DNA of 64,000 nt. Source: an uncultured Gammaproteobacteria bacterium (GTDB lineage: Bacteria > Patescibacteriota > Microgenomatia > UBA8517). The notes below the pieces were generated by a model. It was given only the letters and a program-made list of their open reading frames with translations, did not search any database and had not been told where the DNA came from. The first letter of the stretch is position 1. The number at the start of each line of letters is the position of its first letter. The translations under genes were made by a program, and so were the position numbers. Positions 16,784 through 29,658 of the stretch are shown here, piece by piece. The stretch is from assembly GCA_964524515.1 (NCBI GenBank), contig CAZGEA010000001.1, positions 361,522 to 425,521 on the forward strand, given 5' to 3'.

Positions 16784-17470
16784 CTATTGATTCTGACTTA
16801 CACAAGATCCATCTCCAATTATTGTTTTGTATTGGCTTTTTTGATTCCACTCCGTGCAATCACGAGCTTCAATTACACCAGGTGGATAGCTGGATGTTGG
16901 AGTTGCCGTTGGGCTATTTCCACCACCAACAAATGCATCACCGCAATATGATAAAAGCCAATGTTTACACCATGATGGAGCAGATGGGGGAAAAGTTGGC
17001 CCAGGTGTGGCACTTCCTCCACCGCCTCCGCCTCCACTACCGCCACCTCCACCAGTTTCCCCTCCACCTCCGCCTCCACCAACTCCTGGAGTGGCAGTAG
17101 CAAAATATTGACCTACAGGCTCACCACCAGTTTGAAAAACTTGCCCTAACAATTCATCACTATTTGTAATTCCAGATTTACCTACTCCATCGTCAATCAA
17201 ATAACCATCAAAATTTCCAGAATTTGTTTTTAAATATTCCAAAAAAGCATTTACTTTATCTGGAGTCCAAAGTTCAGTATGTCCATCTGGAAATTTAACC
17301 AAACCATTTCTAGAAAATATTATTGTGTTCCCTGCTTTATCAGTTATTCTGATTTCATCATTTACTAAATTCGAATTATTTATACCGGTTTTTGGAGAAA
17401 AAACAAAAACTATCAAAGCCAAAAATCCAACAATAAAACCAACTATTAAATATTTTGAATTTATTTTCAT
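16784..17470 (-). CDS. Secreted Gly-rich, Cys-containing protein, function unknown
   Basis: Signal/TM at the N-terminus. A poly-Gly tract (GGGGGGETGGGGGSGGGGGGG). Six Cys in the C-terminal 70 aa. Confidence 0.4.
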   Translation of the reverse strand: MKINSKYLIVGFIVGFLALIVFVFSPKTGINNSNLVNDEIRITDKAGNTIIFSRNGLVKFPDGHTELWTPDKVNAFLEYLKTNSGNFDGYLIDDGVGKSGITNSDELLGQVFQTGGEPVGQYFATATPGVGGGGGGGETGGGGGSGGGGGGGSATPGPTFPPSAPSWCKHWLLSYCGDAFVGGGNSPTATPTSSYPPGVIEARDCTEWNQKSQYKTIIGDGSCVSQNQ

Positions 17471-18681
17471 TTTTTACCCACCTGATCCTGTAATCCACCA
17501 ATAATTCCATAAATTGGAGCGATCATAATAATAACCATTCCACCAACAACCACACCAATTAAAAGCATCAAAACTGGCTCCAATAAACTCGTAGCCCTTT
17601 TTATTGAATATTCAACTTCATTTTCATAAAAAACAGCCATTTCCTCCAATATTTCATCCAAAGTTCCAGTTTTCTCTCCAGCTTTAATTGTTTGAATCAT
17701 AATAGCTGGAAAAAGTTTCACTTCTTTTGATAAAACAGATGAAAGTGATTCTCCTTTTGAAACTCCTTCACTAAATCTATTTGCTGCTGCACGCACCTTT
17801 TGATCAGATAATCCCTGGGCAGACACATCAAGCGCATTAGTAATTGCAACTCCGCTTCGAAGTAATGTTGATAAAGTTCTAGCAAATCGTGCAATATCGA
17901 TTTGATGAATAACAGTTGAAACATAAGGTAATTTTAAAAAATAATTCAAAAAAATCATTCTAGTTTTTCTAATATAAAAAAGCATAAACAGGAAAAATCC
18001 TGAAAAAACAGCAGCAGCAATTGTAAGTGCTGTATTGTGTCCAATAAAATCTCCTACCGTCAAAACAATTTTAGTAGGCAAAGGCAGGGGAGTATCTAAT
18101 TTCAAAAATACACTCGAAATTCGAGGTAATACAAACAACATCATGATTGCAGCGTTTCCAAGCATTGCCAAAATAATAACTGCTGGATACATCATGGCTC
18201 CTCTGATTTTTTGAGTTAAATCATAACTTGCAGTTAATTGTTTTGTTAAATATTCAAAAGATTTCTGGAGCGTTCCCGATTCCTCCCCCACTTTTATCAT
18301 TGTCAAAAAAATTGGGTCAAAATCATTTTTATATTGTGATAATACTGAAGTTAAATTTTTCCCTTTTTGAGTTTGAAATGACAAATCAGCCAAAATCTTT
18401 TTCATTTTCCCCTTTTTAGTCTCAGCACGCATAATATCAAGCGCCTCAGGAAGTGATAATCCAGATCGAATCATTGTGGCCATAAACCTACAAAAAAGTA
18501 CTTTTTCAGACAAACTCACATGCCCCGAATCCCCTCCTCCACCATCAGATGACTTAAGTGAAAAAATAGTAATTCCAGTAGATTTTAACGCTGCAAACGC
18601 TTCATCTTTATTTGTTGCTTGAATTGTATCCTCAACCAATTCACCTTTTAAATTTGTTCCCTTGTAAATAAAAATTGCCAT
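17467..18681 (-). CDS. pilC: Type IV pilus platform protein PilC (GspF family)
   Basis: Two GspF-like repeats and three TM segments. Adjacent to and coupled with PilB. Confidence 0.85.
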   Translation of the reverse strand: MAIFIYKGTNLKGELVEDTIQATNKDEAFAALKSTGITIFSLKSSDGGGGDSGHVSLSEKVLFCRFMATMIRSGLSLPEALDIMRAETKKGKMKKILADLSFQTQKGKNLTSVLSQYKNDFDPIFLTMIKVGEESGTLQKSFEYLTKQLTASYDLTQKIRGAMMYPAVIILAMLGNAAIMMLFVLPRISSVFLKLDTPLPLPTKIVLTVGDFIGHNTALTIAAAVFSGFFLFMLFYIRKTRMIFLNYFLKLPYVSTVIHQIDIARFARTLSTLLRSGVAITNALDVSAQGLSDQKVRAAANRFSEGVSKGESLSSVLSKEVKLFPAIMIQTIKAGEKTGTLDEILEEMAVFYENEVEYSIKRATSLLEPVLMLLIGVVVGGMVIIMIAPIYGIIGGLQDQVGKK

Positions 18682-18682
18682 A

Positions 18683-20359
18683 TTAATCCTCCATTACAGC
18701 TCTCAATACTTCTTCAATTGTTGTAAGCCCAGATGCAACTTTATCCAATCCATCTTGCATCATTGTAATCATACCCTCTAAAACTGCCTGTTTTTTAATT
18801 AAATCACTTGAAGATCGAGCAGTAATCAACTTTCTTATCGGTTCACTCAGTGCCAAAACTTCCACAACAGAAAGCCGGCCTGCATATCCTGTGTTATGAC
18901 ACCTATCACATCCCTTACCTTTATAAAATTTTTGATTTGAAACATCATGCCCTTCTTCAGTTAATCTATGCATAATACCTTCACTTGGAATATAAGGGGC
19001 CAAACAATTCTGACAAGATCTTCGCACCAATCTTTGCGCAACAATTGCATTCGTAGTAGAAGCTACCAAATAACCTTCAACTCCCATATCAAGTAAACGC
19101 GGAATTGCTCCAGATGCATCATTTGTATGAAGTGTTGATAACACCAAATGTCCAGTTAATGCTGAATTAACTGCAATCTGTGCAGTTTCTTTGTCTCTAA
19201 TTTCTCCAACCATCATAATATTTGGATCATGACGCAAAAGTGCTCTCAATCCTGCAGCAAAATCCATTCCAGCTTTTTGATTAACCTGAATTTGAGTTAC
19301 ACGCCCAATTCCATACTCAATAGGATCTTCAATCGTACAAATTTTAACTTTTACTGTATTTAAAATATTCAAAACTGAATATAAAGTAGTAGTTTTACCG
19401 CTTCCTGTTGGCCCAGTCACTAAAAGCATTCCATGAGGTTTATAAATATTCTCGCGAATTAGCTCCAAGTTATGTCCTGTCACTCCGAGCTCTTCAAGCG
19501 ATAGTGGACGCGTTGATTCAGCCAAAAGCCTTGCAACTACATTCTCACCATAAAACCCTGGAATTACAGATATACGAAGTGCAATGACATCATCATCAAT
19601 TTTAAATTTATAACGTCCATCTTGAGGAATTCTATGTTCATCAATTTTCAAATTCGAAACGATTTTAATACGCGCTATGAGTGCCGTTTCAATGCCCCGT
19701 GGAAGTTTAATAATATCCCTCAATACTCCATCAATTCTAAATCTTATAATTACATCATATTGAGCAGTCTCAATATGAACATCAGATGCACGCTCGGCTG
19801 CTGCATATTCTAAAATAGTATCAAAAACTTTAATTATCGGAAGCATTTCTGCAGCCTTTGTTGGATCTTCAACAACACCCGCTTTTTTTAGATTCTCTTC
19901 AATTACCCGATCAAATTCAGCAGAAATATTTTTCTTATATTGACCAAGTGCACGCCGTATATCCTCATCAGTCGCATAATAAGGTAAAACGTTCTGCCCT
20001 GTATGACGCCTCGCAAATTCCAAGGCTTCAAAATCAGCAGGATCTTCCATTGCAAGCTTAATCCCCTCCTGAGTCTTGTCAAAAGAAACCATTCTATAAC
20101 TTCTAGCCAACTTTTCAGGAACTAAATTCAAAACATCTTGAGGAATAACAACTTTACCAACATTTGCAAACGGAGCATGCAAATAATCTGCGATCAATTT
20201 TCCAAGCGCATCCTCACTAATTAATCCACGAAAAATTAAAACATCGTCAATCTCACGTCCCAAATCATTTGCCGATTGAAGACTATCATCAAAGTCAGCT
20301 TCTTTGACATATCCAGCATGAACAAGAATTTGTTTTAATTCGGCAGGAGCTATTTTCAT
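18683..20359 (-). CDS. pilB: Type IV pilus assembly ATPase PilB (GspE family)
   Basis: Walker A GPTGSGKTT. Asp and His boxes. Tetracysteine CQNC...CDRC zinc motif. N-terminal GspII_E-like domain. Confidence 0.9.
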   Translation of the reverse strand: MKIAPAELKQILVHAGYVKEADFDDSLQSANDLGREIDDVLIFRGLISEDALGKLIADYLHAPFANVGKVVIPQDVLNLVPEKLARSYRMVSFDKTQEGIKLAMEDPADFEALEFARRHTGQNVLPYYATDEDIRRALGQYKKNISAEFDRVIEENLKKAGVVEDPTKAAEMLPIIKVFDTILEYAAAERASDVHIETAQYDVIIRFRIDGVLRDIIKLPRGIETALIARIKIVSNLKIDEHRIPQDGRYKFKIDDDVIALRISVIPGFYGENVVARLLAESTRPLSLEELGVTGHNLELIRENIYKPHGMLLVTGPTGSGKTTTLYSVLNILNTVKVKICTIEDPIEYGIGRVTQIQVNQKAGMDFAAGLRALLRHDPNIMMVGEIRDKETAQIAVNSALTGHLVLSTLHTNDASGAIPRLLDMGVEGYLVASTTNAIVAQRLVRRSCQNCLAPYIPSEGIMHRLTEEGHDVSNQKFYKGKGCDRCHNTGYAGRLSVVEVLALSEPIRKLITARSSSDLIKKQAVLEGMITMMQDGLDKVASGLTTIEEVLRAVMED

Positions 20360-20392: not shown

Positions 20393-20899
20393 TTATAAAG
20401 CTCTTATGCCAGATGCTACAAATCTGAGGCTATCACGCGGTCCATCGCAAGTATATAAAGTTATTATTTCATCCTGACTTGCTGCAATTACACTTTTATC
20501 TGATGGCTTGACACTCTTAGTGTTTAAAATCACATATTTAAACATTTGATTATTTGAATAAACATAAACCAAATCACCACTAACCAATTCAGGAAGCCTT
20601 GCAAAAAAATCAACCTTATTATGAGCAAACAAAACCTGATTTCCATTCTTTCCAGGAAGTCCAGATTCCGCTCCCCAAGAAACATAATCATCATGAACTT
20701 CCCAATAACCATCAACTATTTGAGCAATCTTAACTGGTAAATCAATATCAATCTTTGGAATCACGACTCTTATTGGATAATTAGTTTCCGCTTGAACTGA
20801 AGTCTCAACAGCTTTTACCTTTGTTGTTTCAGTAATTTTCAAAAAAAACAAAGAAGACAAAAAAATAATAATAGTCAAAAAAAATATTATTTTCCTCAT
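20393..20899 (-). CDS. Sortase-family transpeptidase
   Basis: N-terminal TM. Conserved His (VLFAHN), catalytic Cys in the TLYTCDG (TLxTC) box, and a downstream Arg (RFVASG). Confidence 0.75.
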   Translation of the reverse strand: MRKIIFFLTIIIFLSSLFFLKITETTKVKAVETSVQAETNYPIRVVIPKIDIDLPVKIAQIVDGYWEVHDDYVSWGAESGLPGKNGNQVLFAHNKVDFFARLPELVSGDLVYVYSNNQMFKYVILNTKSVKPSDKSVIAASQDEIITLYTCDGPRDSLRFVASGIRAL

Positions 20900-20901
20900 T
20901 T

Positions 20902-22005
20902 TTATCTCTCTTTTGCTTCAAAAAATAATTGCGATGACCCTAAAAACACAATTGAAGCTCCAAACAAAATACCTGTTAACAAATTTTGGTTAATTCCTGT
21001 AAAAGATAAACCTAAAACTGATGGATTATTAGAAGAATTGCTTACATTTGATGTACCGCCTCTAGAATCGTTATTTGAATTAGAATTAGAATTTTGCTGC
21101 CCAGGATCACTCACACCAGGATCCAAAGGATCACCCGGGTCAGAGACATGATAGCAGTCACAATTTACATGAACAAATGAACTATTTGCTTCATTCTCCA
21201 CTTCAACATTTACAAAAATATCTCCTGTTTTAATTATAGAATCCCCCATTAAACCATCAATCTCATTAAAACTAGTATTCAAATCCAAATTAAGATTATT
21301 TTCTATTTTTAAATTATTATTTACTGTAATCTTATTTTTTTGATTTGTACTAACATTAATACTGTTAACACTATTGGCGCCATTACCACTCACACTTAAA
21401 CTAAGACTGTTGTTTGAATTTGCTGGCATAATAATCGCAGATTGATTTACAGATTTATTTGAAATGTTAACTTTTGCACTTATATTTCCTGTGGTGATTA
21501 AAGCAGACCCCTGATTACCATTTACTTTATTTAATCCAGTATTTATATTGCCACTTATATTAGTTGTTATTAATGCATTATTATTTTGGTTTAAATTATT
21601 TTGATTAGAACTATCAATTTTTACATTTTGCTGTGATCCTTCGCCATTTCCAATAACTTTAACATCCTGACCATTACTACATTTACAATCATTTTCAGTT
21701 ATTTGATTTGAATTTAAAGAATTAGATACCTCAACCTGTGTTTTTGCATTCCCAGTTTCAATACTACTATCTCCTTGGCTATTTGTAACAAAATTATTGC
21801 CTGTATTTGAATTTACATTTACATTATTTTCAACTTTTGCCTCATTACTTTGGGTAACATTTGAAGTTTGTTCATTTATAGTTGTTACTTGAGAACTAGA
21901 ATTCTCACCATTACCAGATACTTGAATCTCCATCGCATAAATAGCTAATGGAAAATTAAAAAATAAAAATATTGAAGCTACTAAACTAAATACTTTGCGT
22001 CCCAT
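20902..22005 (-). CDS. Secreted Asn/Ser-rich repeat protein with C-terminal hydrophobic anchor and charged tail (possible sortase substrate)
   Basis: Signal peptide. Repeat modules containing ..TGNAKT..V.N..NSN....CKC / ..VNCDC.. The C-terminus is ...GLSFTGINQNLLTGILFGASIVFLGSSQLFFEAKER. Confidence 0.6.
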   Translation of the reverse strand: MGRKVFSLVASIFLFFNFPLAIYAMEIQVSGNGENSSSQVTTINEQTSNVTQSNEAKVENNVNVNSNTGNNFVTNSQGDSSIETGNAKTQVEVSNSLNSNQITENDCKCSNGQDVKVIGNGEGSQQNVKIDSSNQNNLNQNNNALITTNISGNINTGLNKVNGNQGSALITTGNISAKVNISNKSVNQSAIIMPANSNNSLSLSVSGNGANSVNSINVSTNQKNKITVNNNLKIENNLNLDLNTSFNEIDGLMGDSIIKTGDIFVNVEVENEANSSFVHVNCDCYHVSDPGDPLDPGVSDPGQQNSNSNSNNDSRGGTSNVSNSSNNPSVLGLSFTGINQNLLTGILFGASIVFLGSSQLFFEAKER

Positions 22006-24253
22006 TGCCGCCTTTCTTGGGCAATTTGGACTTCTTTACAAATCTAAACGAAAGATACGAAATAGCAACAGGAATTAATAGAATAAACCAAGCCAAATTA
22101 AGAGTAACTGTTCTGCTTCCAGCAACCACTGCTGAATCTGAATTATCAACTACTTGTGAACTATCATTGTTAGCTGCACCCAACACCTCATTATTGTCTT
22201 GTGCTAAACCTCCAAAATTCAAAACTTTATTATTATTTGGTTTTTTGCTAACAGTAATCACATTGTCAGCATTACCATTTGATGTATTGCTAGAATTACT
22301 ACTTGTTGATGTGTTAGATGAATTACTACTGTTTGAATTATTTGACGCACCACCAATAGCTTGATTGTTGTTTGAAGATTCAGTTACTGTATTTGTTTGT
22401 TCCTTAGTTTGCCCAGGAGCCACAAAGTTACCAAGCCATGACCCAAATACATTAACAACAGTTACCAACAAATTACCATCTCCAGCGATATTATTGTTAA
22501 CAAAGTTAACTATATTTGCAACTATATTTGCGTCGCCTGTTGTAATATTTGAATCTCCACCTGTATTTCGGCTTGCATCATTGTTGCCAGTATTTGCATC
22601 CAAATTTATATTATTAATAATATGTGCATTATTTGTCTGTGACAATTCATTATTTGTAACGCTTTCTTGATTTGCAGAATTATTACTATTTGCCCCGTTT
22701 CCATTATTTGATGCCATTACATGACCATTTTCATCTACAGTAATCTCCATTTGAGGGCTTCCGGCAACATTTGATCCATCAGGTGAACCCATAATTCTTC
22801 CAACCCATTTTCCAGCTTCATTAACAATTACCAACCACCAATTGCCACCAGTCAAATTATTATTTGCTACATTAATTACTTGTGCAGCCACTGATGAATT
22901 TCCAGTTGTCACTCCATTATTTCCATTCGTGTTTCGATCAACTTCATTTTGTCCAGTTGATGCATTGAAATTCAAATTATTTTCAATTACGGCATTATTA
23001 TTCTGAGTCAATGAATTTGTATTTGAAGAATTTGCACTTGCACTATTATTACTTTCTGATCCATTTTGATTATTTGCAGCTATTGGATTTATGCCAAGTG
23101 CAGCAAGTGCCTCAGGAGTCAAAATAATATCACCATCCAAATTTCCATATACATTAACAACTCCGTAAGTTACTTTTCCAGCTAAATTGTTATTAGCAAA
23201 ATTCAAAATATTTGCAGATACATTTGCGTCCCCTGTTGTAATGTTTGAATCTCCACCTGTATTTCGATTTGCATCATTGCTTCCAGAATCAGAAGTTAAA
23301 TACACGTTATTCTCAAGTGTCGCTTCGTTATTTTGAAAGGTAATATTATTTTGTTCATTTGTTGTATTTGCACTATTATTTGAATTTGCACCATTTCCAG
23401 TATTTTGAGCCACACCACTTCCCAAATTACATCCCGAAATACAATTTGATGTATTTCCAAAATCAAGAATTAAATCACCTTTTTGGTCATCAGCTACATT
23501 AAATTCATAAACTGAAACTCCGGCAACATTTGTATTTACAGTATTAATTAATGTTCCACTTGTATTTGCATCTCCAGTTGTAATTTTATTATCAGAACCA
23601 GTATTTCGAGATGTTGAATTCTCACCAGTTACAGTAGATGCACCTAAATTATTTACTACAGTTGCACTATTTTGCTGATCCAAAACATTTGTAGATGATG
23701 AATTTGAATCTGCCGAATTAGCAGATCCTGCTCCATTACCTTGATTTACAACAATTGATCCGTCTGTTTGCCCAGGTGTAACAACTGCAGCACTATTATT
23801 TGCATCAACTGCTGCAATAACACTTGTAGTTGCATTTCCAGTATCAATTGTCGAACCACTTCCATTATTTGAATTTTGGTTTCCACTTCCTGTTTCAGTT
23901 ACTGGCACATAAGTTGAACTAGGAGTTACAGTTGGTTGTACTTGGTTATTATTGTCAGTTGCAATGGAAGTGGGAGTTGCTGTTGGTGCATTTGCTGGTT
24001 TAACTGTAGCAACTGGAGTTGGAGTAACAATTGGATTAGCAGTTGCAATTGGTGCAGGTGTTGGAACATAAGTTGGATGAGGTGTACTAATTGGTGCAAT
24101 AGTTGGAACAGCTGGTGCAGTGGCAACTGGTGGGGCTGTTGGAATAGGTGCAGGTGTTGGAATCTCAACTTGAGCAAAAACAAAACTTCCGCTTTGCACA
24201 AACAAAGTTACTATCAATATAAAACTTGTTATTATTTTTTTAATTTTTTTCAT
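21986..24253 (-). CDS. Giant (755 aa) secreted Asn/Thr/Gly-rich repeat surface protein
   Basis: Signal peptide plus a Pro/Thr/Ala linker. At least four modules of RNTGGDSNITTGDAN(V/I).ANI.NF.NNN.AG... spaced about 80-90 aa apart. C-terminal TM plus KK-rich tail. Confidence 0.65.
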   Translation of the reverse strand: MKKIKKIITSFILIVTLFVQSGSFVFAQVEIPTPAPIPTAPPVATAPAVPTIAPISTPHPTYVPTPAPIATANPIVTPTPVATVKPANAPTATPTSIATDNNNQVQPTVTPSSTYVPVTETGSGNQNSNNGSGSTIDTGNATTSVIAAVDANNSAAVVTPGQTDGSIVVNQGNGAGSANSADSNSSSTNVLDQQNSATVVNNLGASTVTGENSTSRNTGSDNKITTGDANTSGTLINTVNTNVAGVSVYEFNVADDQKGDLILDFGNTSNCISGCNLGSGVAQNTGNGANSNNSANTTNEQNNITFQNNEATLENNVYLTSDSGSNDANRNTGGDSNITTGDANVSANILNFANNNLAGKVTYGVVNVYGNLDGDIILTPEALAALGINPIAANNQNGSESNNSASANSSNTNSLTQNNNAVIENNLNFNASTGQNEVDRNTNGNNGVTTGNSSVAAQVINVANNNLTGGNWWLVIVNEAGKWVGRIMGSPDGSNVAGSPQMEITVDENGHVMASNNGNGANSNNSANQESVTNNELSQTNNAHIINNINLDANTGNNDASRNTGGDSNITTGDANIVANIVNFVNNNIAGDGNLLVTVVNVFGSWLGNFVAPGQTKEQTNTVTESSNNNQAIGGASNNSNSSNSSNTSTSSNSSNTSNGNADNVITVSKKPNNNKVLNFGGLAQDNNEVLGAANNDSSQVVDNSDSAVVAGSRTVTLNLAWFILLIPVAISYLSFRFVKKSKLPKKGGNGTQSI

Positions 24254-24362
24254 TACTATCTAATTTTTGCGTTGCCCTAACTTACAAAGACTCTAAATTT
24301 ATTTTTGGATTCTCAGTGTGGGGCTTGAAGTGTAAAGCCCCGCACTTCGATTCCATAAGTTC

Positions 24363-25718
24363 TTATCTAACTCCCAAAGCTCCGAGTAAATCGGATAAAT
24401 TGAAAGTAAAATTCAAACTAACTCCTCCCATATGGGAAGGCATATCGTGATCAGATTCTGAACCGTAAACGTTAGAATTTCCTGAAGTTTCAGCACTTGC
24501 TATAACTTCTGAATTTCCTGTTTCGATTGCTGGATCGCTCTCACTATATCCTGTCTCTTTCTTTGCTGTATTTTCTCCAGTATTAGAGAATGCATCGAAA
24601 TCGTTAGTTACACAATCGTGTCCTCTTCTGTAACCATCGAATAGTGCTTCAAATCCAAAAGATTCTCCACAAGCATTTTCTTGGAAGATATTTTTAGAAT
24701 CTGTGAGCTCGGCATTGATAGCGTTGTCGCTTTCATATCCGTTTCCATCAACTTTTGCGTATACGTCTGTTAAACAATCACAATCGACATTTGCCCAGTT
24801 GAAATTGGCTGCAGTGTCAGCAAGAACTGCTGTCTTTGCATTTCCAGTATCAATTGAGGTGTCGCCTCCTGTGTTCTTAGATGCTTCGTTCCAACCTGTG
24901 TTGGCAGATGCATCAAGATAGTTAGCGATGTCAGAATTGTTGTACTGTTGAAGAGTCATATCTCGGTCAAGATATAAATCAATATTGTTGTCTGTTTCGG
25001 CACCGTTTCCAGTAACGATTAAGTCAACTGTTGATCCATTTCCGTTTCCACCTACATTTGCCCAATTTGAGTTAGCCTCATTGGATACTTGAACTCCTGT
25101 CCAAGCAGTTCCTGTAGATATAGAATTATCTCCTCCAGTATTTTTATTTAACTCATTGTCTCCTGTTGAACTGTCTGCGTTTATTTTATTTTTAACATCT
25201 GCATTGTTCTCTTGAGCAACTACAGTTTTGTTAGAAAGTTCTAAATTAGCAGAGTTATCACTTTCGTATCCGTTATTAGCCACCTTAATTAAAGCGTCTG
25301 TATCACAGTTACAATTCTCAACATTTAAAACATTGCTGTTTAATTCATTTTTTACATCGACTACAGTTTTGGAGTCTCCTGTATCAATTGAACTATTTCC
25401 ACCAGTGTTTTTATTTGCTGAATTTCCTCCTGTATTAGAACTTACGTTGATATCATTTTTGACATCAGCATCATTCTTTTGAGATACAACGGTTTCTTGA
25501 GTTTGCGCCACAGATGCGCCGTTTGTTGAATTAGCACCGTTACCAGTAATCTGAATAACAGTTGATCCTCCATCAGTTGCAAAAGCAACAGATACAGGAG
25601 CTGCCAAATTTCCAACTAAAGCGAAAGCTGCGAAAGCTGTTGTTAATTTTTTTCTAAATGTCATTTCATTTTTCACCTCCGCACTAATGAGAAGTTTCGA
25701 AATAAATTTCGAAAGCAC
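24363..25718 (-). CDS. Secreted repeat surface protein (451 aa), same module family, with CxC pairs
   Basis: Three modules of KNTGG(D/N).SI.TG.(A/S)KT...N.AN.NWANV.C.C...V..NGYESDN. Signal peptide present. Confidence 0.65.
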   Translation of the reverse strand: MLSKFISKLLISAEVKNEMTFRKKLTTAFAAFALVGNLAAPVSVAFATDGGSTVIQITGNGANSTNGASVAQTQETVVSQKNDADVKNDINVSSNTGGNSANKNTGGNSSIDTGDSKTVVDVKNELNSNVLNVENCNCDTDALIKVANNGYESDNSANLELSNKTVVAQENNADVKNKINADSSTGDNELNKNTGGDNSISTGTAWTGVQVSNEANSNWANVGGNGNGSTVDLIVTGNGAETDNNIDLYLDRDMTLQQYNNSDIANYLDASANTGWNEASKNTGGDTSIDTGNAKTAVLADTAANFNWANVDCDCLTDVYAKVDGNGYESDNAINAELTDSKNIFQENACGESFGFEALFDGYRRGHDCVTNDFDAFSNTGENTAKKETGYSESDPAIETGNSEVIASAETSGNSNVYGSESDHDMPSHMGGVSLNFTFNLSDLLGALGVR

Positions 25719-25938
25719 TTCTTTCTCAAATTTCCGTTCTCGCTATAAAACGAAAACGGAGGCCTTTCAATCCAAAAGAATTTTTCTCTAAAAAAAACTT
25801 TTAGGTTGATAAGCCTCCGGTTTGCGGTCAGCGAATCATTCAATTACTTTAACCCATATTACTAATAATTGGGCTAATACAGACTATATATACACAATTT
25901 TTTTCAGCCTTGTCAATATGCAATTACAGGATATGTAA

Positions 25939-26130
25939 TCAATTTTTATGTCGTGCCAATGTATTTCCTGTTTTTCGGATGTTGCGAACTGTAATTTGAG
26001 TAACGTTTCCTTCTTGTACATAAATCTCAATACTACCGTAACTTTTTACAGATTTAAGTGCCTTCTTTATTTCAATAAGAAGTGTCTCTGATATTTTTGA
26101 AGTTGAATATTCTCTTGTTGTTGATATCAT
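25939..26130 (-). CDS. Hypothetical small protein
   Basis: ORF only. Confidence 0.3.
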   Translation of the reverse strand: MISTTREYSTSKISETLLIEIKKALKSVKSYGSIEIYVQEGNVTQITVRNIRKTGNTLARHKN

Positions 26131-26151
26131 TTATGTTTACCGAAACACTAC

Positions 26152-26724
26152 TTATTGCAAGCTGATTTCAATTTCTTGCTTTTCACCTTTAATTTCCCCA
26201 ACATGGATTACAAAATCACGAACTCCATCGTTTACTGGAAATCCGATTCTTGAATATTTTGTAGAAATTGCCTGCACCTCAACTGGATCATTGTGAATAT
26301 CAGGAGCTAATAACTCATCATTACCTTTGATTGATAACCTAACATAATCACGAGTGTTAATTTGAACTGCTTTGTTTAAACTATTTGTAATTTTCAAATT
26401 TATAGTTAAAAAAGTTCTTCCATTTGCTGCAGTTGCTTTTTGACCTTTAACAATTATCTCATCACTTAACTCAGCTTTTTCCAAAACAAATTTTATATCT
26501 GAAGTCGTTGATGTTGCAGATACGGGAAAACTAAATTCTTTATTAATATCTCTTGAGGCATAAACTGAGCTTGATGCAGGAGGTGTTGTTTGTGAAGAAG
26601 TTGGTCGAACAAATAATTTGCTAAAAGCGACAAATATACCAATTATTACTATAAGTCCAATTACAGCAAAAATTATATTTTTATTTCGAAATTTATTCAT
26701 TTTATTAAAACTATGCAATAACAA
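26152..26724 (-). CDS. Membrane-anchored hypothetical protein
   Basis: N-terminal TM, then a Ser/Thr-rich linker, then a beta-rich domain. Confidence 0.4.
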   Translation of the reverse strand: MLLHSFNKMNKFRNKNIIFAVIGLIVIIGIFVAFSKLFVRPTSSQTTPPASSSVYASRDINKEFSFPVSATSTTSDIKFVLEKAELSDEIIVKGQKATAANGRTFLTINLKITNSLNKAVQINTRDYVRLSIKGNDELLAPDIHNDPVEVQAISTKYSRIGFPVNDGVRDFVIHVGEIKGEKQEIEISLQ

Positions 26725-26783: not shown

Positions 26784-28124
26784 CTAGTCAAGAGGTACAA
26801 CACGAGATATCACAACTGATGAAATTCTATTCTTAATATCTTCCAAAATTTTATTCAAAATACTGGGCAATTCAGATGCATTTGTGGCGTTAAAATAGCC
26901 TCCAGGAGTTCCATAATCATTTAAAACTTTCTGCACTTGGCATGTAAAAACATCTCGCTGATCAAATACAGTAACTGAATAAGCATCAGTTGATGGGTTT
27001 CTAATTCCAGTAAAATTCCCTGATCGTCCATCGTAATTTTGGCTATCAAACTGGCTAGCTGGAAATGTTTTTGTGGTATCAGCTACAGTACAAGCCAAAA
27101 ACTGCATTGCGGCTGATGAACATGCATAATAAGCATTGTTATTATAATAATAAGGTGCACCTGTATTATTGGTTTTATAATCCGGATATTCCCATTCTTT
27201 CAAAAAACAATCCCAACCATAAGGGTTTGATTGACAATAATCCTGCCCCGTTGCACTAATTGGATATGCAGGGCAAAAACCATCAGTTGTTGGATTAATT
27301 TTATCTGGATAGCCCCATTTAGTAACTTTTGGTGCACATTTAGCATATGGAATTCTAGAATTAGACACTCCATCAGTAATAACAATTTCAACATGCTTTG
27401 CAGAATCATTTGATGCATTACTATCAAAATAATCCTGTGCAAGAGTGAACCCTGTTCCCACACTTGTTGAATCAATTAATTTTCGACAAGCACTCGAAGT
27501 TGCCCAAGTTGATCCAAACTCAGAATTTATTTTATTTTTAGCAAATTCAAAATCAGTAGTTGGCGCAATTAGAACTGATCCATCTACACCATAAACTCCA
27601 ACACCTAATTTAAAATTAGCCTCAGTACTATTTTTAACTCCATCAATAAATGAAATTGCGGCTGCCTTTTGTGCATCAAAACGAGTTTGTGAACTTCCAG
27701 GAGAAGCTGCCTGATCCATACTACTTGTACAATCCAATGACAAAAATATTTCCACACTTGGTTTATTAGTTGTATTTGATTGCACAGCTTGAAGTTTGGA
27801 GACTGCAAATCCACGACGTGCTGAAACACTCAATGTATCAGTTGAACCACCAGTGTTTTTAGTATCATAAGTAATATCACCAACTGTTTTAGTTCCATAA
27901 TCAGAAGATGTTAATGTTCCTTGTGTTGATTTTTTAAGCAAATTATTCAAATACGATTCAGAGGCGTAGGTTGAAACTGCAATATCAGATGCTGATCTGT
28001 TGCGAGTTATAGACAAAAGAACACGCGATCCTCCAATTGCTAATACAAAAGTAGCAAGAACAGCAATAAACATCACATAAATTAAAGTTACAATTCCTTG
28101 ATTTTTAATATTTATTTTCTTCAT
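26784..28124 (-). CDS. Membrane-anchored von Willebrand factor A (VWA) domain protein, pilus-associated (TadG/tip-adhesin-like)
   Basis: N-terminal TM similar to pseudopilin/TadE-like helices. MIDAS motif LSLDCTSSMD. Heads an operon of three pseudopilins. Confidence 0.65.
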   Translation of the reverse strand: MKKINIKNQGIVTLIYVMFIAVLATFVLAIGGSRVLLSITRNRSASDIAVSTYASESYLNNLLKKSTQGTLTSSDYGTKTVGDITYDTKNTGGSTDTLSVSARRGFAVSKLQAVQSNTTNKPSVEIFLSLDCTSSMDQAASPGSSQTRFDAQKAAAISFIDGVKNSTEANFKLGVGVYGVDGSVLIAPTTDFEFAKNKINSEFGSTWATSSACRKLIDSTSVGTGFTLAQDYFDSNASNDSAKHVEIVITDGVSNSRIPYAKCAPKVTKWGYPDKINPTTDGFCPAYPISATGQDYCQSNPYGWDCFLKEWEYPDYKTNNTGAPYYYNNNAYYACSSAAMQFLACTVADTTKTFPASQFDSQNYDGRSGNFTGIRNPSTDAYSVTVFDQRDVFTCQVQKVLNDYGTPGGYFNATNASELPSILNKILEDIKNRISSVVISRVVPLD

Positions 28125-28128
28125 AATT

Positions 28129-28689
28129 TTATCTTCCAGGTCCTACCCCTCCACCACAGTTATTCCCAGTACAAGGTCCAGGTGTCGGACAAAAAAATGT
28201 TGTAACAGTTGGCGTGGGCTGTGCACCAGATTGATTTCCCAAAAATTGCAATTTTCTCTTTGATACAACCATTCTCAATCTATCATTTTGAGTTGAAGAT
28301 GAAGCAAGTTCAAAATCAATTGTTATTTCATAGCTTGGATAATCAGATTCAGCTGAATAATCTCTTACTTCAAAATCAGTAACCAAAACCTCCATTGCAG
28401 TTAATGATTCTCCATTCCTTGTTAATTTTTGATTCTCAAGTTTATAAATAACATTTGAATCCAAATCCAAAACTCCACCTGACCATTTAACATCATTAGC
28501 CCAACGGACGTTATTCGACATATCCTGCATAATATCGTTTTTAGTCTGCTCCAAAACTTGAGTTCTTCTAGTTCTGGTATCAGCAGAATAAAGAAGCAAA
28601 AATATCGAACTAGTTGTTAAAAATATCAATATAGAAACAGAAATTCCAATCAACAATTCAATGAGGGTGAAACCTTGTTTTTTATTCAT
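28129..28689 (-). CDS. Pseudopilin / minor pilin (prepilin-type N-terminus)
   Basis: KQG|FTLIELLIGISVSILIFL. Confidence 0.7.
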   Translation of the reverse strand: MNKKQGFTLIELLIGISVSILIFLTTSSIFLLLYSADTRTRRTQVLEQTKNDIMQDMSNNVRWANDVKWSGGVLDLDSNVIYKLENQKLTRNGESLTAMEVLVTDFEVRDYSAESDYPSYEITIDFELASSSTQNDRLRMVVSKRKLQFLGNQSGAQPTPTVTTFFCPTPGPCTGNNCGGGVGPGR

Positions 28690-29234
28690 TTTGCCAAATG
28701 CTCCTTCAATACCAAATAATCACTTGTAATAGTTTTAGGCTTCCCCAATTCATCCCAAACAACTTCAGCTGTAATTACTTTTGCATCCAAATTCTCCACA
28801 GATCCATTAGGGCACAAATTTGTTAATACATCCCTCTTCACTAAATTATATTTAGGATCAAAACATGCATATTTAATAAAAATATTTCGATCAAATCTTG
28901 TTTCAAGCCCAATATCTTGGCCGATTTTAAGACCCCAAACAGTTTTTCCATTACCAATTCCTCTTTGAATTATTTGATATGAAGAATCACTTGATGAACA
29001 ACAATTCCAATCAGAAAGTAACACGTTATAAGCCACTTCAACTCCTTCTTGTAAAAGTGAAGCTGCACTTCCTTCATATTTTGATCTCTCAGTTCTTTTG
29101 AGTAAAAAACTAATCATTGGAATTACAGCCAAAATAATCAAAGCAAATATTGCAATTGATAACAATGCCTCAATAAGTATCGACCCGCGCTTTTTATTTT
29201 TAATTTTCATTTTTCTATTGATAATATGTCTCAA
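28686..29234 (-). CDS. Pseudopilin-like protein
   Basis: RGS|ILIEALLSIAIFALIILAVIPM, a prepilin-like helix with Glu at +5. Confidence 0.55.
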   Translation of the reverse strand: MRHIINRKMKIKNKKRGSILIEALLSIAIFALIILAVIPMISFLLKRTERSKYEGSAASLLQEGVEVAYNVLLSDWNCCSSSDSSYQIIQRGIGNGKTVWGLKIGQDIGLETRFDRNIFIKYACFDPKYNLVKRDVLTNLCPNGSVENLDAKVITAEVVWDELGKPKTITSDYLVLKEHLAK

Positions 29235-29658
29235 CGACTCCGGTTGAAGAAACAGTCAAATGCATTAACTTGCCGTATTTATTTTTAAGTAAAATTGTGG
29301 TCGGACTTGAATAATAACCAGTTCCAGGTTCAAACCAAATTTGAAAATCTTGAGCAAATTCAACTGTATTTTCTAGACTTTTTTTAGATAATGTCCCTTG
29401 CACTAAGCTACTCTTATATTTTAATTCATAACCGCGTTTGTCTGTATTTGAAACAATTCCCCACTGTGCCCTGTCTCTCCCTTCTCTGGAAAAGACATGA
29501 GCCAATCTCAAATCATCTGATAATCCTTCAAGTGAAGCTTTCAAAGCCTGTGTTGATTGTGAACGAGAGTAAGAAAAAAACAATGCAAAGCCAACCATAG
29601 CAAGAATGGTTATAACTAGTAAAAGCTCGATAAGGCTTTGGGCAGATAATCTTTTCAT
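29215..29658 (-). CDS. Pseudopilin-like protein
   Basis: LSAQSLIELLLVITILAMVGFALFF, prepilin-like with Glu at +5. Confidence 0.5.
   Translation of the reverse strand: MKRLSAQSLIELLLVITILAMVGFALFFSYSRSQSTQALKASLEGLSDDLRLAHVFSREGRDRAQWGIVSNTDKRGYELKYKSSLVQGTLSKKSLENTVEFAQDFQIWFEPGTGYYSSPTTILLKNKYGKLMHLTVSSTGVVETYYQ

Follow-up and report, generated by a model that had tools for sequence, protein, structure and literature searches.

The question raised by this 64,000-nt stretch of contig CAZGEA010000001.1 (the window; all coordinates are positions within it) is what is encoded by three neighbouring minus-strand open reading frames (ORFs) that lie beside a sortase gene. As listed, the ORFs comprise 451, 755 and 367 aa, span 20902-25718 and amount to 1,573 aa in total; we refer to their products as A, B and C. 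A reading made from the DNA letters alone (the sequence-only reading) took them for three giant surface proteins. We found instead three differently attached paralogues that belong to a fixed six-gene cassette, and with sizes of 367-755 aa the word giant was an overstatement. We estimate a probability of roughly 60% that A, B and C are exported rods, encoded by the structural genes of an envelope cassette of the Microgenomates and forming an envelope-anchored surface structure. Within the Candidate Phyla Radiation, the Microgenomates form a large and uncultured group whose cells are ultra-small and whose genomes are tiny. Their surface is thought to be key to an attached lifestyle, and to our knowledge almost none of its proteins have been identified.

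The three proteins share one long repeat module. The NTGGDxSIxTG core noted in the sequence-only reading proved to be part of a longer unit, GNGxxSxN...QxNxAxIxNxxxxxNTGxNxAxxNTGGDxxIxTGDAxTxVxVxNxANxNxAxV. A repeat profile seeded with 8 module copies detected 12 copies in total (three full and one split in A, four full and one weak in B, and three in C), the non-seed copies scoring at E 5e-10 to 5e-5. Lag autocorrelation reached its maxima at 89 aa in A (z 12.3), 88 aa in C (z 10.1) and 110-122 aa in B (z ~5), and none of 300 composition-preserving shuffles of the proteins matched the profile. The claim that all three ORFs share a module present in at least nine copies was borne out, and its periodicity survived a formal test; the unit itself, put at ~40-90 aa, turned out to be 88-89 aa, longer in B, and to have no internal sub-repeat. 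A 22-aa curli-like 'rung' was considered as such a sub-repeat and rejected, with a z of only 2.3 at lag 22 and an E-value of 0.78 in an hhalign self-comparison of the profile. The profile found the module in no other ORF of the window.

All module copies lie on the minus strand. In A, modules 1 (25275..25544; E 1e-34), 2 (25008..25277; E 3e-33) and 3 (24744..25010; E 9e-38) are intact, the first ending in NCNC and the third in DCDC. Module 4 (24450..24746) is split by a Cys-flanked insertion of ~20 aa, which appears as a loop of low confidence in the structural model described below, and yields two partial matches (E 4e-5 and 2.6e-11). The first module of B is degenerate and matches the profile weakly (23765..23971; E 4.8e-5), followed by modules 2 (23480..23740; E 1e-27), 3 (23138..23398; E 5e-28), 4 (22814..23068; E 6e-27) and 5 (22445..22702; E 2e-29). 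C carries module 1 (21649..21915; E 1e-30), ending in DCKC, a degenerate module 2 that was not in the seed (21385..21651; E 5e-10) and module 3 (21136..21387; E 4e-18), ending in NCDC. The core had been described as often followed by a Cys-x-Cys pair. This holds for 4 of the 12 modules, the first and the third in both A and C, and fails elsewhere; B has CISGC. Homologues have CC, CxC or CxxC at these positions, and spacing as variable as this would suit a local disulfide better than a fixed metal site. The conserved local cysteine pairs at module boundaries probably form stabilising disulfides.

As far as sequence comparison can tell, the repeat is described in no family yet, though it is very widespread. 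A, B and C have no Pfam or NCBIfam match at E<=1, and the same collections returned nothing for ten longer or unusual relatives of the three proteins. Searches of PDB sequences gave 0 matches with either the full-length A-family profile (E<=1) or the repeat profile (E<=10). Phage genomes searched by tblastn with A likewise gave no match, and literature searches found no published description of the cassette or its proteins. When 1.84 billion proteins were searched, the repeat profile matched 3,434 representative clusters (50% identity), of which 2,207 reached E<=1e-10; in the best 150 of the 3,434 clusters, lengths are mostly ~400-510 aa (4-5 modules) and 720-800 aa (5 modules). The searches of Pfam, NCBIfam and the PDB thus agree with the earlier remark that the module could not be placed in any known adhesin repeat family. 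Full-length homologues at 40-74% identity, with invariant columns, number in the hundreds. For A we counted 428 homologues of ~410-450 aa, all unnamed and without Pfam domains, and for B 567 of ~700-800 aa, none with a Pfam domain. C is the fastest-diverging of the three paralogues, its closest non-identical homologue being 42% identical. Where homologues are named, they all come from Microgenomates (Woese-, Levy-, Davies-, Ames-, Gottesman-, Chisholm- and Roizmanbacteria), and nearly all are annotated as 'hypothetical'.

Whether the repeats form a beta-solenoid, a question the sequence-only reading had posed, was addressed by structure prediction. Protein A was modelled with AlphaFold2 (AF2) from a 98-sequence alignment; the model (predicted local distance difference test, pLDDT, 80.5; predicted TM-score, pTM, 0.72) is all beta except for the signal peptide and the last ~30 residues. 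In the AF2 model of B the modules exceed a pLDDT of 90 and are joined by low-confidence linkers, residues 23-108 (Pro-rich) and 625-715 (Ser/Asn-rich) are disordered, and residues 721-741 form a helix. The family alignment displays conserved Asn, Ala, Val, Ile and Gly alternating with variable positions (QxNxAxIxNxVxAxA...), which points to a conserved core beneath a freely varying surface. The modelled all-beta repetitive rod has solenoids as its best structural neighbours and thus falls into the beta-solenoid/beta-helix class, which is a structural class and not a homologous family. On the strength of these models we accept that the modules of A, B and C are predicted to be beta-solenoid-type rods. 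Membership in any named solenoid family was rejected: Foldseek comparison of the A model with the PDB gave no match at E<=0.001 (best E 0.12, TM score below 0.1), and Pfam was negative. The proteins have neither the RTX beta-roll domain PF00353 nor tandem GGxGxDxUx nonapeptides, and the curlin domain PF07012 gave no Pfam match at E<=1. Homology to CsgA was rejected as well, the A family aligning with CsgA at an hhalign probability of 0.5% (with a CsgA sequence entered by hand).

The window ORFs show six co-directional minus-strand genes across 20393-26724, in the order UP, DUF2292, A, B, C and sortase. UP (26152..26724) encodes a bitopic membrane protein with an N-terminal transmembrane (TM) segment and an extracellular domain; its Pfam matches to DUF4352 and DUF5067 are weak and sub-threshold. 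The second gene (25939..26130) encodes a 63-aa DUF2292 protein (PF10055, E 2.2e-8). A follows with a signal peptide, four modules and no anchor. The program that listed the ORFs starts A at a GTG at 25718 (24363-25718); the true start is probably the ATG at 25664, which gives a protein of 433 aa (24363..25664), the same length as its homologues. Protein B (21986..24253, 755 aa) consists of a signal peptide, a Pro/Thr/Ala-rich segment of ~85 aa, five modules each followed by a hydrophobic hairpin insertion, a Ser/Asn-rich spacer of ~90 aa and a C-terminal TM anchor. The gene for C (20902..22005, 367 aa) shares its first 20 nt with the end of B; its product consists of a signal peptide, three modules, an Asp/Pro/Ser/Asn-rich spacer and a sorting signal. 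Asparagine makes up 14-19% of A, B and C, and Ser, Thr and Gly are also abundant. The last gene (20393..20899) encodes a membrane-anchored sortase of 168 aa; it had been called the upstream gene and in fact lies downstream of C in the direction of transcription.

This arrangement is conserved. The same order of UP, DUF2292, A, B, C and sortase was seen in two long contigs and, in a search for related loci with 16 sequences, in 50 GTDB species-genome loci; the cassette recurs in Woese-, Chisholm-, Davies-, Levy- and Roizmanbacteria. From locus to locus the lengths of the proteins hardly vary (A ~430, B ~750 and C ~380 aa). In almost every one of the ~50 loci an orthologue of UP immediately precedes DUF2292 and A, the DUF2292 gene is kept between UP and A in most, and the sortase is kept downstream of C, which substantiates the proposed link between the repeat proteins and a sortase.

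The three paralogues differ at their C-termini. Each begins with a Sec-type signal peptide as judged by reading the sequence; in C this peptide was read by eye as MGRKVFSLVASIFLFFNFPLAIYA, and the modules follow. Near its end C carries a candidate sorting signal (20905..21018, minus strand) made up of VLG-LSFTG, a 21-aa hydrophobic segment and EAKER, which aligns with the LPxTG motif of its orthologues. Most of these end in (V/I)LPxTG, a TM segment and 'YLRLRSGxSP' at the same position; 30 have LP-x-[TS]-G, a TM segment and a tail there (28 LPxTG, 2 LPISG), and the clade of the window has LGL[SA]xT[GSN]. Among the ORFs of the window, C is the only one with a sortase-type signal. B ends in a different kind of anchor (21989..22114, minus strand), in which the motif RTVTLNLAW precedes a hydrophobic helix, also seen in the AF2 model, and a basic tail (KKSKLPKK...). 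This (K/R)x(I/V)xINLAW motif, with its TM segment and basic tail, is conserved in ~45 orthologues, N719 being invariant and L720 and A721 nearly so; no sortase motif precedes the hydrophobic segment of B in the window or in the orthologue alignment. A has no hydrophobic C-terminal segment and ends in a conserved acidic/amphipathic peptide, ...SLNFTFNLSDLLGALGVR; across homologues this peptide is acidic and alternating, then amphipathic (..DFDFxFxLxDLLxxLG). The sequence-only reading had assigned two of the proteins a hydrophobic end with a basic tail. The hydrophobic ends are there in B and C; the tail of C is not clearly basic, and the sortase-type signal is confined to C.

The neighbouring enzyme is recognisably a sortase (PF04203, E 6e-20, 71.6 bits against a cut-off of 26.6; TIGR01076, 50.5 bits against 39.35), with legible catalytic motifs for His (LFAHN), Cys (TLYTC) and Arg (LRFV). 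No class-specific sortase model reached its cut-off for this type or for the other type found in related loci. We tabulated motif and sortase in 39 loci, of which 8 have the variant motif and 31 do not (30 with LP-x-[TS]-G and one in which no motif was found). All 8 variant-motif loci possess a sortase of the window type (phmmer score 105-133; window self-match 365). In the other 31 a sortase was called beside C in 25, and all 25 are of the other type (score 17-34); six have no adjacent call. That the GLSFTG-hydrophobic-EAKER end is a variant sorting signal, suspected from the start, thus gained support from the LPxTG motifs at the aligned position and from a sortase type that switches alongside. 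We conclude from these features that C is the predicted substrate of the sortase. Some loci contain a second sortase related to the window type (phmmer 75-82) a few kb upstream of the cassette, besides the one after C (L015 5869-6399; L017 4141-4671; L024 56-430; L043 2798-3334).

Intergenic structure may bear on how much of each protein is made. Hairpins were located by direct folding. A G+C-rich hairpin with 10 of 11 bp paired (24306..24355, minus strand) directly follows the stop codon of A, within the 109 nt that separate A from B; its folding energy is -26.3 kcal/mol (z -5.95), and 0 of 200 shuffles were as stable. The A-B gap contains a stable structure in 42 of 44 related loci (median z -5.2), and the B-C and C-sortase junctions of related loci are short or overlapping. 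The gap between DUF2292 and A is ~230-270 nt long and in the window holds a near-perfect hairpin of 75 nt (25752..25826, minus strand), followed by a U-rich tract (GUUUUCGUUUU). The 106-nt stretch that contains it (25735-25840) folds at -38.2 kcal/mol (z -5.7; 0 of 200 shuffles as stable). This second hairpin may terminate transcription of UP-DUF2292 or else belong to the leader of the A transcript; Rfam returned only sub-threshold models of plant miRNA precursors, which we took as chance. A TTGACA-N18-TATATA element can be read upstream of it, near 25884-25913, and a scan with consensus promoter and terminator patterns gave no excess of sites over shuffles. Without an anchor, but with a long upstream gap of its own and a conserved hairpin 3' of its gene, A is probably made in excess. 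Such a layout of gaps and hairpins would be typical of a highly expressed major subunit followed by partners made at a lower level, which suggests that A is the major subunit.

Taken together, these results lead us to the following model for an envelope-anchored surface structure. A, B and C would be exported by Sec, as their signal peptides indicate. The sortase would then cleave C at LSFTG (LPxTG in most lineages) and link it covalently to the cell wall, its Pro/Ser/Asn-rich spacer carrying the modules through the wall. The motif, its conservation and its co-variation with the sortase are observations made on the loci; the chemistry would be that of the sortase family. B would be held in the membrane by the 'INLAW' helix and basic tail, with the disordered spacer of ~90 residues raising its five modules to the surface, a topology predicted from these sequence features. 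Finally, A would dock on or stack against the modules of B and C, through its C-terminal peptide or through solenoid ends, to give a fixed surface fibril or coat. This templated assembly is much less certain than the envelope-anchored structure as such.

Several points weigh against this model. The assembly of A on B and C is something that we purely infer, and in its AF2 model A resembles a rod that is already complete and soluble, so that it need not polymerise. Instead of attenuating transcription, the hairpin behind A might terminate it fully or stabilise the mRNA. Since all the variants fall in one clade, phylogeny confounds the co-variation of motif and sortase. The EAKER tail of C is weakly basic at most. 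Neither C nor its canonical LPxTG orthologues match an LPXTG-anchor model in NCBIfam or Pfam; the hidden Markov model is short and appears insensitive here, and because the NCBIfam models miss even canonical LPxTG orthologues, the anchor was called by reading the sequences. In two related genomes C stops right after LGLSATSS(K/E) without a membrane segment (L015 12440-12760; L023 9302-12442, where B and C are fused as one ORF of 1,046 aa), and in both the sortase ORF begins ~20 nt after C. The lack of a membrane stop-transfer segment behind the sorting motif would be unusual in a classical sortase substrate.

Other explanations have to be set against the same evidence. One might suspect that Asn/Ser/Thr/Gly-rich, low-complexity ORFs merely mimic a repeat and have no function, since the GC content of the window is ~33% and asparagine is so frequent in the proteins. 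This artefact is refuted by the periodicity (z 10-12), the lack of profile matches in shuffled proteins, the hundreds of full-length homologues with invariant columns, the thousands of clusters that match the profile and the confident AF2 models. Three structural genes beside one sortase also recall the sortase-polymerised pili of Gram-positive bacteria, in which case A, B and C would be the pilins of tip, shaft and base. Polymerisation needs a sorting motif on each pilin, however, and here only C has one; the class C sortase model stays far below its cut-off (42 against 160 bits), Pfam finds no pilin domain, and the fold resembles a beta-solenoid and not the immunoglobulin-like CnaA/CnaB domains. 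We regard this pilus as effectively refuted.

It is harder to dismiss the possibility that the three act independently as adhesins, each attaching to a host or partner cell on its own, with the repeats as stalks or binding surfaces and with tandem duplication accounting for their being neighbours. The sequence-only reading had favoured such a role, which is possible and would fit both the variable surface and the rapid divergence seen in C. Sets of adhesins, though, usually differ in copy number and in architecture, whereas order, lengths and attachment modes are fixed here across several candidate phyla, an invariance that supports a structural envelope role at least equally well. Moreover A, lacking an anchor, cannot act alone as an adhesin, and the neighbourhood of pilus genes described below is not conserved. 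We therefore think independent adhesins unlikely. A coat resembling a surface layer (S-layer), in which A is the lattice subunit and B and C are its membrane and wall tethers, is more doubtful still. Pfam and NCBIfam detected no SLH or other known S-layer anchoring domain, lattice formation is without support, N-glycosylation sequons do not exceed the expectation from composition, and rod-shaped solenoids fit fibrils better than sheets. The envelope-anchored structure built from differently attached rods accounts best for the evidence, in our judgement. A bolder version of it, to which we give little credence at present, holds that the cassette makes a new surface polymer or coat that is a hallmark of the Microgenomates, with free A templated on a membrane tether ('INLAW' and TM segment) and on a wall tether; as part of that version, sortase and substrate would in the clade of the window have changed their specificity jointly from LPxTG to LSxTG.

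By functional analogy only, the closest known system in logic would be the chaplins of Streptomyces. Long chaplins are anchored by sortase through LAxTG, and short ones are secreted and assemble on the anchored forms. Both systems consist of domain-sharing paralogues, some of which are fixed to the wall through a non-LPxTG motif (LAxTG there, LSxTG here) and others of which are free. They differ in that no chaplin domain was found here by Pfam, in that an 89-aa predicted solenoid takes the place of the 40-aa amyloid-forming chaplin peptide, and in that B, a third paralogue anchored by a membrane tail, has no chaplin counterpart. The logic of an anchored nucleator and a free subunit also recalls CsgB and CsgA of curli, without homology. 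Curli and Fap have repeats of ~20 aa, compared with the 89-aa repeat without sub-repeat seen here; the CsgG/E/F machinery is missing, and the cell is monoderm with a sortase. C resembles LPXTG wall proteins that are served by a housekeeping-type sortase in its signal peptide, repeats, Pro/Ser-rich wall spacer, L(P/S)xTG motif, hydrophobic segment and short charged tail, and in the adjacent sortase with its His, Cys and Arg motifs. It departs from them in the Pro-to-Ser change of the window, which goes with a distinct sortase type outside the defined classes, and in always travelling with two paralogues that lack the motif. In architecture, beta-solenoid adhesins come closest (FHA/TPS, autotransporter passengers, RTX beta-rolls and the SufD core), but Pfam detected no TPS domain, autotransporter barrel or GGxGxD nonapeptide here, and there is no outer membrane.

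The surroundings of the cassette differ from locus to locus. In the window, genes on the minus strand for PilB-like (18683-20359) and PilC-like (17467-18681) proteins lie downstream, and a 446-aa VWA-domain protein (26784-28124) and three pseudopilins with N-methyl motifs (28129-29658), also on the minus strand, are encoded upstream. Apart from the window, only its two closest relatives (L004 and L005) have PilB and PilC behind the sortase; the other loci have unrelated neighbours. A general functional link to type IV pilus genes was accordingly rejected, and the embedding in a pilus cluster appears to be lineage-specific. Relatives usually carry the cassette elsewhere, for instance beside FtsEX, an M23 peptidase and VanZ in L001. 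After PilC, the window contains an ORF of 228 aa (16784-17470, minus strand) without a match in Pfam or NCBIfam. Its product begins with a TM segment, includes a long run of glycines (GGGGGGGETGGGGGSGGGGGGGS) and has a C-terminal part that is rich in Pro and Thr and contains Cys. Many related loci encode a fourth paralogue of ~200 aa on the opposite strand after the sortase, with a signal peptide and two modules separated by a CCC/CGC/CPC cluster (L015 13104-13703; L035 14083-14685; L040 13775-14371; L001 15354-15950). It is absent from the window. Pfam and NCBIfam searches with A, B, C, their orthologues, UP and the fourth paralogue gave nothing significant except the sortase, DUF2292 and VWA matches.

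Many contigs with the cassette (L008, L012, L015, L016, L022 and others) bear the title 'uncultured Gammaproteobacteria bacterium' or 'Pseudomonadales' in public records. Judged by gene content and by homology to Woesebacteria loci, these look like mislabelled metagenome-assembled genomes. The window has a steadily and strongly negative GC skew (cumulative -5.0) with most genes on the minus strand, which recalls the disparity in strand composition that is reported for a complete Microgenomates genome (PMC7143001). ARAGORN found no tRNA genes in the window.

Wall- or membrane-anchored repeat surface proteins are known as such; what is new is the repeat family and a conserved, sortase-linked cassette in which three paralogues divide the labour. 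The significance would be smaller if A, B and C were one more wall-anchored set of repeat proteins without any special assembly. Being absent from Pfam, NCBIfam and the PDB, the repeat may qualify as a new domain family and would merit structure determination, and the paired change of LPxTG to LSxTG and of sortase type offers a natural experiment on sortase specificity. Comparative genomics has placed a sortase in nearly all Microgenomates, with no substrate named (PMC6744442). The cassette gives this enzyme a concrete candidate substrate, the conserved C, together with two partner paralogues and a testable model of assembly. If the templated coat were real, it would explain the near-universal sortase of the Microgenomates superphylum, and it could correspond to the unexplained surface layer or to the non-pilus filaments on ultra-small groundwater cells.

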